A stretch of 64,000 nucleotides of DNA. Origin: Camelus dromedarius (taxonomy: Eukaryota). Under the pieces are notes generated by a model. The model searched no databases. It saw nothing but the letters and a program-made list of their open reading frames with translations, and was not told where the DNA came from. Shown piece by piece: positions 7,991 through 56,850 of the stretch. The stretch lies in the NCBI RefSeq assembly GCF_036321535.1, contig NC_087436.1, positions 12,400,001-12,464,000 on the forward strand. The letters run 5' to 3'. A program made the translations under genes and the position numbers. Position 1 is the stretch's first letter; each line of letters begins with the position of its first letter.

Positions 7991-9399
7991 TATTTTAAAG
8001 TCAGCTAATGTATGGTAAATAAGAAATACCATGCAAGTAGTATTTTATGAAACAAGCAAATACAATGTATTACTAAATGAAAATTGTCTTGACTTTTAAA
8101 TGAAAATTTCCATTGCTGGATACTTTATTGCTTTTTTCGAATGACTTTTAGTCACTGCTCACTCTGGTAGTGATAATTATTACTAAGTCTTTTATTTGTT
8201 CTCACTTTTCATATCACAAAACTTTCTCCTCAATTCACTTTCTTTCTTAGTGTAGTGCATCCTTTTAGATTTCTTACCAAAAACATTTATGTATGATATA
8301 CATACTTAATAGTTTGTTTAGGATATTGTAAAAGATTTAGATCCCAAACTACATTTTAAAATAATACATCATGACTAAATAGGACTTAGTCTAGAGAAGT
8401 TCTACATCAAAAAGTTATATCAATGTGATTCACCAAATTGAATAAAAGGGAAAAAATCTACACAATCATTTCAATATATGCTGTCTATCTATTTCTATAT
8501 CTATTTGCCATTTTGCTAGATTGTCAGCCATTAACATTGCCTTACTATATCCTCTCCTAAGATCAATTTTGCATAGCAGGTACGAGGAACATCATTTTCT
8601 AGAATCTCCTTCCCCATTGCTTCAGGCTAGAATTTGCCAATAAGAAGACCTTGCGTATGTGGAAAGTGACTGGAGGAAAAGTTTTCATTCCAGGAAGCTT
8701 GTGGCAGCCAGACACCATGGTTTCACAGATTTCTCTACAAGTTCCTACTTGGCTGCTACAGAACAAGACAGAAAAGACCTTGGCTTTTACCAGAGACTTG
8801 AAAATTCCTGAACTTTTCTGACAAATGTGGGAGACTGAGAGACTCACTTGTTCAGGGCTTCAGACTGAAGTCATCAGAGACCCCCTGACCTTCTAGTGAA
8901 GCTCTTTCCAATCTTCACCCACTCAGCTCTTTATACATTCATAGGTGTTCTATTGTCTTAAAAACATCTTTATTACAATAATATTTAGAATAATTCCATT
9001 TTACTGACCAAACCAAGAATGATAAAAATGATGTAACAATTATAAAAATATGGGTAGATGTAAATGTTCTTTCACTCATAAAAGCTACCTACAAAATTTA
9101 TAAATACATTTCAACAAATGGATAAATTTAAATACATTCATTTTAATATCAGAAATAAGATAATGATGCCCATTATCACTGCTACTGTTGAGCAGAACTG
9201 GCCAGGAAATTAAATGACTAACAAAGATTAGAGGAGAAGAAGTAAAGTATTCATTACTTGTAATGCTATAAACATTCACATTAAAAAGGATGATCAACAA
9301 GTAATACCAAATGATAAAAGTACTATGCTATATTTAAGGATAAAAAATAATAGTCTTCCTTTATACTATCAATAACAAATTATAAAATATAATTAAATA

Positions 9400-10930
9400 C
9401 AAAAGACCCCAAGTTATCAAAGCAATCATGAGAAAAAAGAACAAAATTGGAGGTATCATGCTCCCTGACTTGAGAATATACTGCAAAGCTACAGAAATCA
9501 GAACAGCACAATACCAGCACAAAAACAGACACATAGATCAATGGAACAGAAAAGAGCCCAGAAATAAACCCACACCTTGTGGTCAATTAATCTATTACAA
9601 AGGAGGTAAGAATATACAATGGAGAAAAGACAGTCTCTTCAATTGGAGGTGCTGGGAAAACCGGACAGCTACAAGTGAAAGAATGAGATGAGAACATTTC
9701 CTCACACCATATACAAAAATAAACTCAAAATGGATAAAAGACCTAAGTGTAAGACCTGAAACCATAAAACTCCTAGAAGAGAACATAGGCAGAACACTTT
9801 TTGACATAAATCGCAGCAATAGTTCTTTAGATCTGTCTCTTAAAGCAAAAGGAATAAAAGCAAAAAGAAACAAATGGAACCTAATTAAACTAAAAAGCCT
9901 TTGCACAACAAAAGAAATCATCAACAAAAAGAAAAGACAACCTACTGAATGGGAAAATATTTGCAAATGATATAACAGACAGGGAATTAATATTCAAAAT
10001 ACATAAGCAGCTGATACAACTCATTATCAGAAAAATAAACAACCCAATCAAAAAATGGGCAGAAGACCTGAATAGACATTTTTCCAAAAAAGACATATGG
10101 TAACTAATAGGCACATGAAAAGACGCTCAGAATTGTTAATAATTAGAGAAATGCAAATCAAAACAACAGTACCACCTCACACCTGTCAGAAGGACTATCA
10201 TCAAAAGTCTATAAATAACAAATGTTGGAGAGGATGTTGAGAAAAGGGAACCCTTGTTCACTGTTAGTGGGAAGGTAAATTGATGCAGCCACTGTGGAAA
10301 ACAGTATGGAAGTACCTCAAAACACTGAAACTAGAACTAGCATATTTCTCAATAATTCCACTCCTGTGTATACATGCAAAGAAAACAAAAACAGCAATTT
10401 GAAAAGACGCATGCACCCCAATGTTCATAGAGGCATTATTTACTATTGCTAAAATACGAAAGCAATCTAAGTGCCCATCAACAGATGAATGGATTAAGAA
10501 GATGTGATATACATATATATAATGAAATATTACTCAGCCTCAAAATCAATAAAAATTTTGCCATTTGCAAAAGTGAAATAAGTCAGGGAAAGAAAAATGT
10601 TATGTTATCACTGATACGTGGAATATAAGAAATAAGATGAATGTATATAACAAAACAGAAACAGACTCACAGATACAGAGAAGAAAATAGTTAACCAGTT
10701 GTGTGGGGTGACAGAGGAGTATGGGATTAAGAGACACAAACTACTTTGTGTAAAATAAAAAAGCAACAAGGATATACTATACAGCACAGGAAAATACAGA
10801 CATTTTTTGTAATAATTTTAAATAGAGTATAATCTATAAAAACATAGAACCACTTATGTTGAACACTTTAATAACTAGTATAATACTGTAAATCAACCAT
10901 ACTTCAATAAATTTTTTAAAGAAATAAAAA
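9400..10930 (+). mobile_element. L1 3' portion (ORF2 end and 3'UTR) nested in older L1 ORF2 remnants (8340-8480, 9100-9390)
   Basis: ORF2 peptides GGIMLPDLRIYCKA..RHIDQWN and KDSLFNWRCWEN. L1 3'UTR and A-rich tail at ~10905-10930. Confidence 0.9.
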
Positions 10931-10985
10931 TCTCAAATAAACAACCTAACAAATATTATATAATTTAAAATAATATACCACTTTA

Positions 10986-13900
10986 GGTGTGGCGGGGGCC
11001 AGAGTTCGCTGCACGTCGATGGAAAGTTTGGCGGCGCGGCTGCCCCGAAGTTCAGAGTGACGACACGTCCACGTGCACCTGCCCTGAGCAGCAAGGCCTC
11101 CCCGGCGTCCCTGTCGTGGGCAGAAGGGCCCGCTGCTCGTCTGTGGACCCCTCGCAGTTGGCAGGCTCCCGCAGACGCGGGGTCTAGGCCTCCGCCCCAC
11201 CGCGTCCAGCCTGGGCAGCGGCCTCCAGGACACAGGCGGCAGAAGCAGCAGCAACGCCAGAGGCTGCAGTGGCGGCTGCGGCGGGAAGGCGGGAGTGGCA
11301 GGCAAGAGTGCAGCCGCCTCCGTAGCAGACGATGCCCCCACCTACCCAGCGTCGGAACAAGAGCGGCATCATCAGCGAACCCCTCAACAAGCGCCTGCGC
11401 CGCCCCCGCCCTCTCGCCCACAGCTCTTCCCTTGGGGGCAGTGGCGCTGGCAGCATGATGGGCGGGGAGTCTGCTGCAAAGGCTGCTGCGGCTGCAGCCG
11501 CTGCCTCCCTGTTGGCCAGTGGGCACGACCTGGCGGCGGACAAAAGCACGAACGTGGTGCTGTGGCCAGCCTGCTGGGCAAGGCAGAGCGGGCCGCGGAG
11601 CTGGCAGCCGAGGGACAGCTGACGCTGCGGCAGTTCGCGCAGTGCACGGAGATGCTGAAGCGCGTGGTGCAGGCGCGCCGACCGCGGGTGAGCGAGGCGG
11701 GCGCCCGGCCTGCCCGACATGGAGGCTTGGCGGGTGCCGAAGCCCTCAACTGGCCAGTCCGACTTCCCCTACCTGGGCGCCTTCCCCATCAGCCCAGGCG
11801 TCTTCATCATGACCTCGGCGGGCGTGTTCCTGGCTGAGAGCGCGCTGCACATGGCTGGCCTGGCCGGGTACCCCATGCAGGGAGAGCTGGCCTCCGCCGC
11901 CATCAGCTCCGCCGGGAAGAAGCGGAAACGCTGCGGCCTGTGTGCGCCCTGCCCGCGGCGCATCGGCTGCGAGCAGTGCAGCAGTTGTAAGAACCGAAAA
12001 GCTAGCCATCAGATTTGCAAATTGAGGAAATGTGAGGAACTCAAGCCTTCTGCTGCGCTGGAGGTAACTTACACGCCTTAGAGGGAGGTGTGTGGGCTCT
12101 TGCGCCTGTCCGGCAGTCCAAACCCACTCCTGCCCAGATCCACACCTTTCCTGCCTGGGCGAGTGTCTGTGGGATGCCCAGCCCATCCCTGGGCTCTAGG
12201 GTTTTAGGGCAGGCTCCAAGACACCGCTTCACTGCCCCACAAGTCAGAGCCACATCCTCAGATAGATGCCCGTTGGTTGTTTTGAGCTTAGGCAAGCATG
12301 AAATTCCAGGCAGGGGCCTAGCATTCTCTCCAAGCCCCCGGATTCTGAACCCCTCCTGGAGTTTTGGGTCAGGGATTGAGATTCCCACAGAGGTACTAAG
12401 TCTCTGACTTTCAGACATGTCCTAACGCTTCCAGTCCGTGACCCAAGATTCCGGGACTCTCCTCTGCCCCATTTGAGGGGTTCTGTCTGGTGGACCCTGT
12501 GGCTTTGAGGGGTAAGCCCTTCATTTGCCCTTTCAGAGACCAACTTTTCCCCCTGAGGCCACCCAAGGATAGAGCAGCTCCAGTGCTGACTGCTCTGCTC
12601 TGAGGCCTGGAAGAACCCTAGCTCTAGGCACCTAGTTAACAAATTTGGGGTGCCTTGGGACCCTAAGACCAGTCTGGCTGCATACTTAATGGCCAGGGGT
12701 CCTGTGGACGGGGCTGGGACCAGGGGATGGCTTGAGCCTGGAGTACAGGCAAGCCTTGGCCACTGTGGGATTGGCTTTGAGAAGGCAGAAGGGTTCCCAT
12801 GCTGTTTTCTCGCCACCCTTGTAGCAGGGCCTGTCCCATGCCCTCAGCCATAACACCTTGCTTTGGTGTCAGGCCTGGGTACAAAAGCAACTTTTCAGCC
12901 TGCTGACCCTGCCCTGTCCCCGCCCCTCTGAGAAAAGGGCTTGATGCAAATGTACAGAATGGCTGTAAAACAATGGCACCCCAGCCGTGGCTGTCCCCTA
13001 CCCCAAGCCCCAGCATGCATCTGCCCTCCTGTCCAGAGAACACACTTGTGTGCACACAAAGGCGCCTGCTCTCATCTAGTGTAGAGACAGTTACACACAC
13101 GCACACACACACACATACATCATGCCCAGTACCCAGTCTTATTACAGGCGCAGCTCTTAATAGACACCGCAAGCATCCTTCCTTCCTAGCACAGCTCCAA
13201 ACACGCTAATCACTGTAGCACAGCTCAAGGCACACACCTTGTATGTGTCCAGTGCACACGTGTACACGTACTCATTTGACAGAAACGTGACCGTAACTCT
13301 CAGATGCACCACAGGCACCTGGCGCTTGTGGCCTTTGGACCGGGGAAAGGAGTCTTCCTGTCTGGAAGGAGTGTTCCTGGGCACAGTGGCTCAGGAGGCC
13401 TCTGGGTGCTCCGGGCCCTCCAGTGGCCCAGCGGGTCAGGCTTCTCCTCTGGCCTGGCCAGGATGGCAGGAACTCCACGGGGTGGCCTCTGTTACTCCAT
13501 GCCCATCCCTCCATCGTGAGGCCATCCATGGGGTGAACATCTTTAACCAGGCCCAGCCAGACCCTGGGTGAACTCTCTCCTTGTTTTTGTCTCCTGTTCC
13601 TGCCAGAAGGTGATGCTTCCGATGGGAGCCTCCTTCCGGTGGTTTTAGTGATTGTGGCGGGAACCCAAAGCTGCCCTCTCTGTGCAATGTCACTGCTAGT
13701 GTGGCCTCTGGCAAGGGATTCAAGCAAAAACAAATGGATGCACTGTCTTTAGAACCAAAAATATTCTCTCGCAGATTTCATTCCTGTTTTTACATATATA
13801 TAGTTGTTGTTGTCATTTTAACATCTCCACGTCTCTAGTATAAAAAGAAAAAGAAAAAAATAATTAACTGATTTTTTGGAAGAACAACAAAAAAAGAGGT

Positions 13901-14627
13901 ACAGACGAATCTATAAAGTACTAAGACTTCCTGGGCAAAAAATGTACAATCAGTTTTCTTCCTGCGTCAGTGTCAACGTTGTCTGTGCAGAAGATGCAGT
14001 TTTTGTGTAGAAAATGTAAATTTTCTGTAACCTTTTGAAATCTAGTTGCTAATAAGCACTACTGTAATTTAGCACAGTTTAACCCCACCCTCATTTAAAC
14101 TGCCTTTGATTCTTTTCGACCATGAAATGGTGCATAGTTTGCCTGGAGGATCCACTCATGTTTATAGAGAAAGTTGATGGCGCCCTGTCAGCCCCTGGGT
14201 ACCCATCCACTCGTGCGGCGCTGCCCCGAGGAGCTCGCAGAGCGGGAGGGAGCAGCCCACCCACCCCCCGGGGCCCAGGCCTACCGTGCTGCACCCTCGG
14301 TCCCCAGAATGGGATCCCCCACCCCAACAGTGATGATTTTGTGTAAACGAAGGAAAGTTCTGTTCATTTATACATTGAGATCTGGGGAGCCCATGTCTCG
14401 ATATTTCTGAGCCTGGTTAATTCCCTTAGAGAAAATAAGGCCCTTTTTTCTGGCCTTTGCTGATGGCAACAGAAGAAGGGGCTTCTGTGCCTGGCCCGCT
14501 GCAGGTGGGGGTAGGTGCCGGGTTGGGGGCCTTGCCCATGGCCAGCTTCTCACTGCTGAACATGCTGTTTGTATTGTTTTAGGAAAGCAGGCTGTTTTGT
14601 GAATACAACAAATGCACGTTTGTGTCA
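10986..14627 (+). pseudogene. CXXC5: CXXC5 retrocopy (semi-processed pseudogene) with retained last intron
   Basis: CXXC5 peptides spread over two frames ([52 protein letters not shown] finger..PSAALE). Start codon position reads GCG at 11202. Frameshifts near 11336, 11546, 11706, 11728 and 11751. Last exon KVMLPMGASFRWF* at 13607-13648, then 3'UTR with a degenerate polyA signal AATACA at 14602. TSD aatataccacttta (10972-10985) / aatatatcacttta (14633-14646). Confidence 0.93.
12064..13606 (+). other. Retained CXXC5 intron inside the retrocopy (1543 bp)
   Basis: GAG|GTAACT directly after the AALE codons, and polypyrimidine tract ...ctcctgttcctgccAG|AAG directly before the KVMLP codons. Confidence 0.9.
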
Positions 14628-16025
14628 AGAAAAATATATCACTTTAAATAGCAAAACCCCACCCTCCAAAAATTAAGAAATAATTGAAGAAGAGTGTCAT
14701 TTAAATAGCATTGCATCCCATGGGATAACAATAAATACACTGGTATCTGGATCAGTCTCCTGGCTGTCCACCACCTGGCCTTGAAGTCAGTGACACATAT
14801 TCCGAAATTATGAATAATTGGCTTCTAGGTACGACTACAGCAGCAAAAAACTCCGAAATTCTCATTGTCTTATAGCAGCAAATATTTATTATTTGATCAT
14901 ATTATATGAGGGCTTGAGTCGACTGTAGCTCTTCTGGGCAATGCTCAACTCCACATGCCTCCTTGTTTCAAGTCTCTGGCTGAAGGACAGCCCCTGAGAT
15001 CCCCTTTCTCATGGCAGAGGGCAGAAACTGAGGAAGGCAGAACTAAAGTGCAAAAGTTCATTTAAAGTTTCTGCTTGGACGTTATTTGGATCCCATCCAC
15101 TCACATCCCATTAGCCAAGCCAAGTTGATAGGAAGTGTATATAATCTACCTGCAGGAAGGCAGAGCAAATGCAGGGAAGGAAAAATTGAATGGGCACCAA
15201 AGGCACAACTGATGTAAATAAAACAATAAGCACCTTGTCTAGAATATAAGACACATTCCATAGCTTTAGCTCTTACTTTCATTTTATTTTGTTGAATTAT
15301 CACACAGTCCTGAGAAATATCTTATTACAAGAAAATGATGATTCAGGGTAACCAAGTATCTTGTTTAAGGTTTTGTAATGGCAGCACTAGAACTTACAGC
15401 CAGGGATCCAGTCACCACAGAAAATGAATTTTCCACAATCACACAAGGTGATTATATGGAAACTGATCACAGAATTGACAGTGTCCTGTGAGAAAAATTC
15501 CAGTTCCCAACTGGAAAAGCTCTGGTAGCTTAATCAAGCTCCATTTGGTGAATTTTCTGTAGACTACTGTTCATTCCAAGCCTATAAGTCTATCCTTCAA
15601 GAATACTTTTCTCATTCTTTTCTATGACTCTAGCAGAAAATTTAACAAATAATTAATGAAGCCTTTCTGCTACGTGGAAAGCGTGGGGGAATAAATTCAT
15701 CAGCTGGCACTTTTGACCAGAATGTAGTTTCCTATTTCATTTTTCATAGCAGGACAATTTTTTACTGATTTGTTAAGTCAACCATTATCTGCTTGATAGT
15801 AGTGTTCTCATGTTAAAATAACAAACTAACATTTTGTTTTAAAATGTTTATCAAGCTTGAGAGTATGCTTAGAGTGAATTTGTTTTCTGGGGCTTGTTCC
15901 TATCAGATCCTGATAAAATCTAGATTATGGGTAAGCAAACAAATGACACAAACATATAACGTCCCAACTTCATGCCCTTCTACTCCAGTAGCGTTCTAAC
16001 TTTGCAGGGTCTCACGAAGCCTAAG

Positions 16026-50076: not shown

Positions 50077-51225
50077 TTAAACGTTGGTAGCCTCTGTGAA
50101 AGAGTCACTGGGGCCATTGTTCTTTGTGACTTCCAGGTTCTTTTTAGCCTTGAATGTCACGGACACCTCAGAGTGAATGGCGTCCATCCTTTGCTCACAG
50201 CGGAAGGCTGAGAGGAAAGCCTTTCTGTAGTTGCTGTTCATCCAGCCATAGAGAAGAGGGTTGGCAAAGGTGGAGCACATGGCGATGATGTGGAACACGG
50301 TGAAGATAAGTTTGTACTCCTTCAGGTCCAGGACTTGGTTGTCAATGTCCACAGCAAGTTGGAAAGCATGGAGAGGCAACCAGCTGACCGCAAACACCAC
50401 CACCACACACACCAGCATTTTGGTGGTTTTTTGCCTCCGCTGATGATAGTGGTCGTTGGCAGCTCCAGGGCTGACATGGTTCCTAAGTTTACTCCAGATA
50501 CGAGTGTAGGAGAAAGAGATGATGCCCAGAGGTAGGACATACAGAATCAATAAGGAGGAGAGACTGTAGACAGTGCCATAGACGCTCTTGTCCTCACCAG
50601 GCCACTTCTCCGTGCAGGCCACAATCTCAAAGTCAGGAATGATCTCAATCAGTGAGTACTCCCGGAAGATGGCCAGGGGGCTTGCTAGCAAGGCACTGAC
50701 ACCCCAAGCCAGGCCAATAATCAAGAAGCTGATTCGCTTGGAGATCTTGCTCTCCAGGTGGTAGACGATGCAACGATGCCTGTCCAGGGCAATTACCGTC
50801 AAGGTGACGGTGGACACTTGTACCGCCAGGCCCTGGGCATAGGGCACCAAGTGGCATAGGACAGGACCCATTTTCCACTCCCCCATTAAGGTGTAGGTAA
50901 GCGTAAATGGCAGGCAGAGGGTATTCACCAGAAGATCGGCCACAGCCAGGTTGGCGATAAAAAAGTTGGTTACTGTGCGCATGCTCTTAAATTTGATCAC
51001 CACGTGGATCACCAAGGAATTGCCAATCACCCCAAGCAAGATGATGGAGCAATAGGCCAATATAAGTACGATCTGTACCTCGATCAGCTTGGTGCTGTCT
51101 ATGAGCTCGGGCTCAGAGTCGGGGGCCAGCTCACCTCTAGGAGTGGTGTGCCCTGGACCAGACTGCTCCACCTTCGTTTCTTCCACCGTCTGGTTCTCAT
51201 CAGCCTCTGCACCTAATGGGCCCAT
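50077..51225 (-). CDS. NPY2R: Neuropeptide Y receptor type 2 (class A GPCR), 382 aa, single coding exon
   Basis: Intact ORF MGPLGAEADENQTVEE...SFTEATNV with seven hydrophobic segments, GNSLV (TM1), LAVAD (TM2), the Y2-type DRH motif, WLPLH (TM6) and NPLLY (TM7). The ATG at 51225 has context GAAAATGG. The ORF-track start at 51234 is a non-ATG extension. Confidence 0.98.
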   Translation of the reverse strand: MGPLGAEADENQTVEETKVEQSGPGHTTPRGELAPDSEPELIDSTKLIEVQIVLILAYCSIILLGVIGNSLVIHVVIKFKSMRTVTNFFIANLAVADLLVNTLCLPFTLTYTLMGEWKMGPVLCHLVPYAQGLAVQVSTVTLTVIALDRHRCIVYHLESKISKRISFLIIGLAWGVSALLASPLAIFREYSLIEIIPDFEIVACTEKWPGEDKSVYGTVYSLSSLLILYVLPLGIISFSYTRIWSKLRNHVSPGAANDHYHQRRQKTTKMLVCVVVVFAVSWLPLHAFQLAVDIDNQVLDLKEYKLIFTVFHIIAMCSTFANPLLYGWMNSNYRKAFLSAFRCEQRMDAIHSEVSVTFKAKKNLEVTKNNGPSDSFTEATNV

Positions 51226-52223
51226 TTTCAGCAACTAGCACAAGAATCTACAATTTAAAAAATGAACAAATGTGGAACAAGGGAAACACAAGGGTGAAAG
51301 GATTATTACAAATGGGTTGGTTTCATTTTGGTTGGGGCTCAAAGTACCTGTCCTCTGATCCCTACAACTGCACATAGTGGAACATTTCAATAAAGCGGAC
51401 ACCTTAATAAGTCTGCTCACGAATGTGCATAGATTAAATCAGGTCTTTGAAATATATATTATGAAGACAAAATCTTAGACCTATAGTATAGACATAATTT
51501 CGATGTGAGTGCTACCAAATGATTCAATGCATTTTAAGCGAGATGGATATTAGAAACTTAATTAAATTAATTTTATAACTGCTATAAATTCATCAAATTA
51601 ATTTTAAGGTTGATAAAGAAAATTATCTTCAATATTTTGACTGTTTTAAATTCATAAATATAGCAACAAATTGCATGAAAAAGAGACATATTAAAACCCT
51701 TTGCTTGGTGCCTGGACTTTAGTAGAAAAATTTAAGATAAACTGAGCAGATTCGGTTTCGTAGCCATTTTTCCTAGTGGATGGGTTAGTGTTAGAAATAG
51801 ATAGCCTGTGTAAAAATAGCTTCTTTTTTTGGGGATCTGAAATAAACTTCCTACCTGACACAGCAGAATTCTACACAGGAACCACAGGAAAATATGTCCA
51901 ATCTGAATTCCGTCTCTCTCTAACCCCTAAGTACAAAAGTTTTAACACATTTCTTCCCCAATCGCTCCCCTCACCCTCAGAATGTCCCTTCTGTGTGCCC
52001 CATTCAGTCAACACTATCCCCCCTTAATTAAGCCACATAAAGCTAAGAAGCAGGTAACCATGCTAGGCATTTTCATCTCCTTTAGTTCTCACATTTAAGA
52101 GAACCCTCAGGCTGGTCTCTTGCATATTTTTCCCAATGGTCCTTTTATTTCTATCACATTTATTCTGGCTGCCTTGATTTTTTACCATAATTACTCTAAT
52201 AGTCATCTAACCTTCTTCTCCCA

Positions 52224-55748: not shown

Positions 55749-56850
55749 TGACCCGGCCCTCGCGTTTCTGCTGAGACGTGGAAGCCAGATGTGTGCCGCG
55801 CGCGGGTCACTCTGATGATTACCTAGCCGCCGGCTCGGAGAGGGCACTGGAAGGTCCCCACAGGCCGACCTAGTGCCTTCGGCTCGGCAGCGGGTGCAGG
55901 GCAGCCAGCGCGCGCGGGAGAGCAGGAGAGCGCGGCGTCCTCCCGGCGGTCGGAACGGCGGGGAGGCTGGTGCCGCTGGGATCCGCCGCCCACCTCCGCC
56001 GCCAAGCGCGCGGACACCGCACCGCCCCGCGCGGCGCGCCCGGGGGTGGGAGCGGGGAGAGATGGGAGGCTCCGGAGGAGTGGAGGCGAACCTCCCTCGA
56101 AAAGGAAAACAAATAAACAAACAAAGAACAGGTGCAGGGAGTGGGGGGCAAGGGCCCCGCAGCAGAGAGCGGGCGGGGAAGTTTCCGTGCGAGGGCGCGG
56201 GGGACAGCGTCCAGGTCTCCGCCCGGAGAGCCTGGAACGCGGGCAGCGGGACCCCGCCCAGCGCCGCCTCGCGGGTCCGCACGGTCACCTGCTATTGCTT
56301 CTCCCCCTGATGTCCACTGGCCACCTCCAAGTTTGATACTCTGGGCGTTCCCAGCACTCTTACCTCCTCTCCCCTCCACCAACCCCTCCCTTTGCTCTCG
56401 GCTCCTCAGTTCCGCGAGAGATGGTCCAACGAGCCTGCGAGGACAGCCTGCCCCCCCACCCCACCCCAGGCTCGGGCCGAGCTAGCACATCAGCCCAAGA
56501 GAGGCCAGGGCGAGGGTGAAGGCCGCCAGGCAGACAGTCCCAGCTGCGAGCGACGGGGCTGCTGTTCCCAGTGCGAGTGCTGCGGACCTGAGGACACCTT
56601 GAGCTGGCACGAGGCGGGCCTGGGAAGCAGAAGCCCCGCGATTTGGCGGGGCTGGGAAACCCCAGAACTCCAGCCAGGAGCTGCTGCTTTTTTGTTTGCA
56701 AAAGCAAAGATGGGGAGCTGGACCCGCGCACAACCACGGAGAAGCGCCCCACACGATTGCCCGCGGAGGACCAACCCTCGGCCAGGGAGTGCGGGGCGCT
56801 GGTAAAACTCTAACTAGGCGGTTGTCGCGCTCCAATGAGAAGGTAAAGCG
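55749..56850 (-). promoter_or_regulatory. NPY2R: CpG island covering the NPY2R promoter and non-coding exon 1
   Basis: Sharp rise in GC and CpG density (e.g. cgcgcgcggg, gcggcgcgcc) with GC boxes. The sequence before the donor resembles the end of human exon 1 as recalled. The TSS cannot be placed from sequence alone. Confidence 0.85.

Follow-up and report, generated by a model that had tools for sequence, protein, structure and literature searches.

A semi-processed CXXC5 retrocopy downstream of NPY2R

The window is a stretch of 64,000 nucleotides of the Camelus dromedarius genome. Searching its positions 10980-14740 against the same genome identified 10986-14629 as a semi-processed retrocopy of CXXC5, located ~39 kb downstream of NPY2R, beside an old L1 and in DNA of 31-35% GC. 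The parent, which is also the sole full-length relative (L002 on G000:C3), matches the copy at 87% over 3.6 kb and encodes an intact protein with 96% identity to CXXC5 of cattle, deer and pig. The parental 5' exon (L003) is a 66-base match 29 kb upstream of this locus, and CpG o/e around it is 0.79-0.95. In the retrocopy the 5' exon is spliced directly to exon 2, bridging the 29 kb, so an intron has been removed; the last CXXC5 intron is still present, hence the term semi-processed. The 3' end falls within ~20 bases past the parental AATAAA, and the insert is bounded by a target-site duplication of 17-19 bases with an A-rich end. Differences were counted from the parent to the window copy, W>S denoting A/T>G/C and S>W denoting G/C>A/T. 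The features are listed below.

9390..10880, + strand: old 3' fragment of what we take to be a LINE-1, flanking the insert; 29 paralogues at 73-82%; a negative control in which the W>S excess is absent
10967..10985, + strand: 5' target-site duplication, with a near-copy at 14630-14646
10991..11055, + strand: fragment of the non-coding 5' exon of CXXC5, derived from the parental promoter CpG island and joined to exon 2
11056..12063, + strand: copy of the large CXXC5 coding exon, a CpG island with a W>S plateau; start lost, five frameshifts
11719..12081, + strand: residual open frame from internal Met190, holding the zf-CXXC domain; compensating -1/+1 indels
12064..13606, + strand: retained last intron, GT and AG intact; differences near-balanced
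13607..14629, + strand: last exon and 3' UTR in normal decay; 12 parental CpGs kept, 16 lost by transition, 8 other
14630..14646, + strand: short A-run and 3' target-site duplication

GC content is 0.69 and CpG o/e 0.77 across 10987-12064. The start codon of the exon copy has changed from ATG to GCG at 11202. Indel density is higher in the exon (13 per 1012 bp) than in the intron (11 per 1543) and not higher than in the UTR (15 per 1021), and was not used as evidence. Elsewhere in the window, NPY2R is an intronless gene at 50077-51231 on the - strand (E-value 4e-244 to a solved receptor), and a natural CpG island (GC 0.68, o/e 0.80) lies at 55750-56850, ~5 kb upstream of it.

Substitution bias and CpG retention

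Relative to the same-genome parent, W>S differences occupy 42 of 272 W sites at positions 11200-12005, and S>W differences 12 of 525 S sites (Fisher test, P-value 1e-11). Amino-acid-changing differences across the exon comprise 31 W>S, 6 S>W, 9 S>S and 5 W>W. The sequence-only reading had arrived at about 28 versus about 7 by hand, and every codon change that it gave as an example was located in the parent/window comparison, as were five frameshifting indels in the CDS part. Its GC alleles are not shared by the parent. The excess is present in the interval 11200..12005 that it had delimited, but the biased stretch begins near 11056 and not at 11200; S>W changes, said to lie mostly at the edges, do so just partly (11224, 11344, 11727, 11815, 11990, 12004). 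Polarity was derived from protein conservation among 25 named placental orthologues, not from a DNA outgroup. Codons 13 and 99, two of the 31 W>S, are parent-lineage changes (window residue in 19/25 and 22/25 orthologues) and were dropped from the polarised counts. Sites with the parent residue in at least 20 of the 25 orthologues give 27 W>S versus 5 S>W. The W>S bias is confirmed as real, well beyond chance.

Other parts of the insert behave differently. The retained intron holds 62 W>S and 55 S>W differences, and the 3' UTR 34 and 45, these intron and UTR counts mixing two lineages, the copy and the parent. All three coding changes in the last exon are S>W, as had been noticed from the sequence. 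The exon differs from the intron (P-value 0.003) and from the last exon (P-value 3e-5), and its excess survives orthologue polarisation. Outside the insert, the L1 flank has GC* of 0.26-0.36 in 5/5 bins when compared with its 29 paralogues, which it thus resembles; the bin nearest the insert, ending ~100 bases off, has W>S at 12/169 sites, where ~29 would be expected under an exon-like excess (P-value 1.5e-4). Within the exon, W>S is flat (7/54, 9/53, 6/60 and 7/65 in four bins), and the W>S peak over the flanks is of kilobase scale. Since the L1 flank lacks the excess and W>S is flat within the exon, the bias tracks the CpG island and not the region.

We scored 15 unselected control retrocopies (4 GAPDH, 6 alpha-tubulin, 5 actin) in the same way as the exon copy. 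Controls were picked by gene family, not by pattern. The pool leaves out L037 (an actin gene at 81% identity, considered old and functional), duplicates nearly identical to L040 and L052, and divergent actin-related genes. We masked 12, 40 and 75 sites at which at least two copies share a non-CpG difference, as well as the first 12 codons of actin; unmasked, the actin copies have GC* of 0.31-0.51. At polarised 0-fold sites the exon copy shows W>S at 29/233 and S>W at 6/316 (GC* 0.87), versus 91/5664 and 270/5471 in the pooled controls (GC* 0.25, range 0.07-0.40 across 15/15 copies; P-value 2e-11). The excess holds at non-CpG sites (P-value 1.4e-5 versus controls). W>S transversions (A>C, T>G) are raised (8/233 versus 14/5664 in controls, P-value 1e-6), and non-CpG S>W changes are near background (6/254 versus 122/4603 in controls). 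W>S changes have accumulated at 3-8 times the neutral rate over the copy's entire lifetime, and the average non-CpG B is 2.2 (95% 1.4-3.5) above background.

CpGs had been called abundant despite the frameshifts, and their number has in fact risen from 63 to 90 in the exon; in the last exon it has fallen from 38 to 24. Among 58 aligned parental exon CpGs, 46 are kept, 3 are lost by transition and 9 are lost otherwise, and 41 exon CpGs are present in the copy only. CpG transitions at exon 0-fold sites number 0/62, versus 148/868 in controls. This absence of CpG decay is a sequence proxy for germ-line hypomethylation; it would have a P-value of 0.005 if the exon were methylated half the time. 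Composition alone is inadequate, because the actin controls began equally CpG-rich (79 CpG, o/e 0.74) yet decayed. The piece of parental promoter exon carried along is one candidate reason why the exon escaped methylation.

Two further retrocopies show the same pattern at 0-fold sites: ARHGDIA (W>S 21/209 versus S>W 5/168) and POP7 (13/125 versus 2/134). For both, the parent was taken as ancestral without orthologue polarity. A distance of 280 kb separates them, and a TUBB3 copy is located in between (L082, L084 and L086; G000:C26:16.03-16.31 Mb). Compared with the solved human protein over 235 codons, the TUBB3 copy differs at 21 amino acids, 15 of the changes being S>W and 1 W>S. Because this intervening copy decays normally, the GC drive at ARHGDIA and POP7 is insert-specific. 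A class of GC-driven retrocopies exists, with three positives and 0/16 among unselected copies; the positives were preselected for the pattern and do not give the frequency of the class.

Some features of the control families were observed in passing. Human ACTG1 and ACTB have an intron at codon 41; in the parental ACTG1-like gene (L066/L058, G000:C16:27.98 Mb) that intron is absent and the first 363 coding bases form one exon. Two actin retrocopies lie within near-identical duplicated blocks on contigs C35, C22, C11, C86 and C98 (97-100% identity; L041-L044, L052-L057, L061-L065). At least 6 tubulin copies, most with stops, fall within ~320 kb at G000:C29:2.88-3.20 Mb.

Residual frame, age and strand pattern

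Selection could have kept the insert, either because its CpG island worked as a promoter or because it was a short retrogene for a zf-CXXC protein of 120-127 aa starting at Met190. The residual frame is predicted as a protein of this length in Camelus annotations of two species. It has an ATG in good context, compensating indels, 8/8 cysteines and intact splice sites, and the last-exon stop trims just its final residue. Retrocopy islands can also turn into promoters, according to the available part of PMC3839921. Against this, codons 201-305 contain 15 nonsynonymous versus 7 synonymous differences, the synonymous ones coming from two lineages; 0-fold changes other than W>S are equally frequent in the residual frame and in the frameshifted part; and R>P and N>G lie inside the zinc finger. 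With its start lost and five frameshifts, the exon frame is disabled and free of purifying selection, its 3' remnant being open but without sign of constraint. Moreover, 24 of the 42 W>S differences make no CpG. Selection could account for the absent methylation but not for the substitution bias, and we consider it markedly unlikely as an explanation.

Intron divergence amounts to 4.6% per lineage, which at the substitution rates of large mammals dates the retrocopy very roughly to 18-30 million years ago. Protein models of the orthologous copy are found in Camelus bactrianus and C. ferus; protein searches returned no lamine orthologue. In a 5' frame, 94 codons of the C. ferus model are identical to the window, so that 16 of 19 W>S differences there are shared, and derived residues of the 3' half are common to C. 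bactrianus and C. ferus. Hence, the bias predates the split between camels with one hump and those with two, placed at ~5 million years in the accessible text of PMC5577142. Five amino-acid substitutions are private to the two-humped models, and 0/5 are W>S, all being S>W or S>S (P-value 0.007). The bias may have ended or faded recently; alternatively, the private changes may be polymorphisms or assembly errors.

An assembly artefact, or ectopic conversion with the parent, might be suspected from the C. ferus model (P0137, P0138), which is parent-like over a short stretch, codons 179-200, that is frameshifted in the window and in C. bactrianus; either the assembly is chimeric there or a short tract was converted by the parent. 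However, the derived residues recur in independent assemblies. Among the runs listed, 14 of 24 contain 96-97% of the words of the copy, two of them possibly being the source, and words common to copy and parent number 130/3871. Conversion by the parent would also erase differences, not add G/C alleles. The artefact reading is thus largely refuted and its chance is next to negligible. Two RNA runs labelled as reproductive-system metagenome contain 0.27 of the words; they may be DNA or come from another camelid and do not count as evidence.

Strands were compared at 0-fold sites, where A>G exceeds T>C (18/145 versus 3/87-88, P-value 0.03; P-value 0.04 against controls). Across all exon sites the figures are 26/200 versus 15/155 (P-value 0.40), and pooling the CXXC5, ARHGDIA and POP7 copies gives a P-value of 0.08, POP7 alone leaning the opposite way. 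The 0-fold asymmetry is unpredicted by gBGC (GC-biased gene conversion), a process that should be strand-symmetric. One could instead attribute the A>G changes to ADAR having edited the template RNA before it was reverse-transcribed: sense-strand A>G is the largest class (18/29), and there are two AA>GG doublets. ADAR disfavours a 5' G, but the copy lacks any such 5'-neighbour preference, since As preceded by G changed about as often (6/58) as those in other contexts. The retained intron shows no asymmetry (24 A>G versus 24 T>C), the A>C and T>G changes are raised too, and neither CpG retention nor the T>C lean of POP7 would be explained. Editing is very improbable, in line with the sequence-only reading, which had set it aside as the main cause.

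S>S and W>W changes should stay unchanged under a pure conversion bias, but S>S is raised (8/316 versus ~2 expected, P-value 0.001-0.005). Since S>S is about four times expectation, the local mutation rate is raised too, and an added mutagenic effect is needed besides gBGC. Raised mutation is expected at break sites. It is also described for active start sites in the portion of PMC13712754 available. Mutation might even act alone, if the island is unmethylated and transcribed in the germ line and is subject to TSS hypermutation as well as strand asymmetry, but to no fixation bias. The raised S>S and the 0-fold strand asymmetry would fit, and both processes are described for human testis-expressed loci in the same portion of PMC13712754. 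According to that text, however, mutation alone around TSSs causes net G and C loss, and in the copy non-CpG S>W stays near background while W>S is several times neutral. A fixation bias is needed because methylation loss reduces S>W and cannot account for a 3-8 fold rise in W>S, transversions included. We therefore find mutation alone distinctly unlikely.

A putative CpG-island hotspot and known systems

Overall, we suggest, with a probability of roughly 0.7, that the exon was unmethylated in the germ line and served as a CpG-island, PRDM9-independent hotspot with gBGC for most of its life, at an average B of ~2; recombination, methylation and PRDM9 independence are what we infer here. gBGC is invoked because it is the known fixation bias on a dead copy. 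Conversion at an orphan CpG island, as proposed from the sequence, is supported as the best fit, with a ~1 kb excess that coincides with an island lacking CpG decay. By its structure, the insert derives from a partly spliced CXXC5 transcript retrotransposed beside an old L1 in AT-rich DNA. Its CpG-dense first kilobase would have escaped germ-line methylation for most of its history, as the absent CpG decay suggests. The open island would have drawn meiotic breaks by the default PRDM9-independent route known from other mammals, and heteroduplex repair favouring G/C alleles would have fixed W>S changes several times faster than neutral, matching the observed pattern. Added CpGs may reinforce the island. 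The 3' part, presumably methylated, and the flank have decayed in the normal way.

The same fixation bias could come from one or several PRDM9-directed hotspots that fell on the insert by chance. The ~1 kb width of the excess and the lack of W>S among the five recent changes, as for an extinct hotspot, agree with this. So do a table in PMC5519329 that lists camelids with a KRAB-SSXRD-SET PRDM9 orthologue and intact catalytic tyrosines, and episodic gBGC on single exons, documented in the accessible part of PMC12290510. However, an excess of ~0.10 per W site gained in a twentieth of the age of the copy would imply B of tens to >100, and a brief episode leaves the 0/62 CpG transitions unexplained. 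Moreover, the plateau coincides with the CpG island, and the CpG-retaining ARHGDIA and POP7 copies are alike. The sequence-only reading had not specified a type of hotspot. Given how large the excess is and how lasting the CpG protection, we favour a long-lived island hotspot over a transient PRDM9 site, which we regard as unlikely. These two features imply a long hotspot life, yet none of the recent changes is W>S.

Of 52 mammals, 39 use default hotspots at hypomethylated loci (PMC11161765). No camelid name appears in the main text or 4 supplementary files of that paper, nor in one supplement of PMC8892340. RefSeq lists PRDM9 in camelids, with the table in PMC5519329 silent on zinc-finger status, and a literature search with little coverage of subscription journals returned no report on camelid PRDM9. 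Family searches identified no PRDM9 exon in this genome; searches with two zinc-finger patterns gave no homogeneous 84-bp array, and one with a SET-exon pattern was likewise empty. The PRDM9 locus is probably missing from this assembly, so these negatives say nothing on array loss.

Default hotspots are already known, as are gBGC at CpG islands and the origin of CpG islands from retrocopies (PMC3839921 and PMC4122923, in their available parts). A literature search that covered few subscription journals returned no report of dead retrocopies becoming gBGC hotspots. Tentatively, at somewhat less than an even chance, CpG-dense retrotransposed exons alone may found self-reinforcing default hotspots in AT-rich deserts, with camelids being a strong default-hotspot lineage despite PRDM9. 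Default hotspots are usually studied at old promoters, where selection, transcription and recombination are inseparable. Where the parent is conserved, a dead copy shows the ancestral state of hundreds of neutral sites, and its own 3' UTR and the L1 flank serve as internal negative controls. If the proposal is true, hypomethylated CpG-rich DNA suffices to attract recombination to a new location in a mammal that has PRDM9, and a CpG island can be enlarged by gBGC, here from 63 to 90 CpGs. Two fates would then await retrocopies, methylation with decay (16/16 unselected) or lack of methylation with GC drive (CXXC5, ARHGDIA, POP7), and the copies would form a neutral transplant series for asking which sequence creates a default hotspot and whether CpG islands are built by gBGC. 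As a warning, such copies mimic fast protein evolution and get annotated as CXXC5-like genes.

The CXXC5 copy resembles PRDM9-independent hotspots of placental mammals (Joseph et al. 2024, PMC11161765) in its local non-CpG GC* peak at a CpG-rich, putatively hypomethylated site in a PRDM9-bearing lineage. Those loci, however, are old, mostly conserved, promoter-like and measured in bulk, whereas the CXXC5 copy arose de novo from the coding exon of a dead retrocopy. Dog CpG-island hotspots (Berglund et al., PMC4350167, in the text available) likewise show suppressed CpG decay and raised W>S and total substitution rates; dogs are without PRDM9, whereas the table in PMC5519329 lists camelids with a KRAB-SSXRD-SET orthologue. 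PPP1R26P1 in RB1 (PMC3839921, PMC4122923) is also a retrotransposed CpG-rich exon that keeps its CpGs, but in the available parts it is described for methylation and imprinting, and 'gene conversion' has 0 occurrences in that of PMC3839921. Coding exons hit by episodic gBGC (Riffis et al. 2025, PMC12290510, as far as its text is accessible) carry similar exon-sized W>S clusters with radical amino-acid changes. Those cases are short PRDM9-type episodes in functional genes, whereas the CXXC5 copy appears neutral and has lasting CpG protection.
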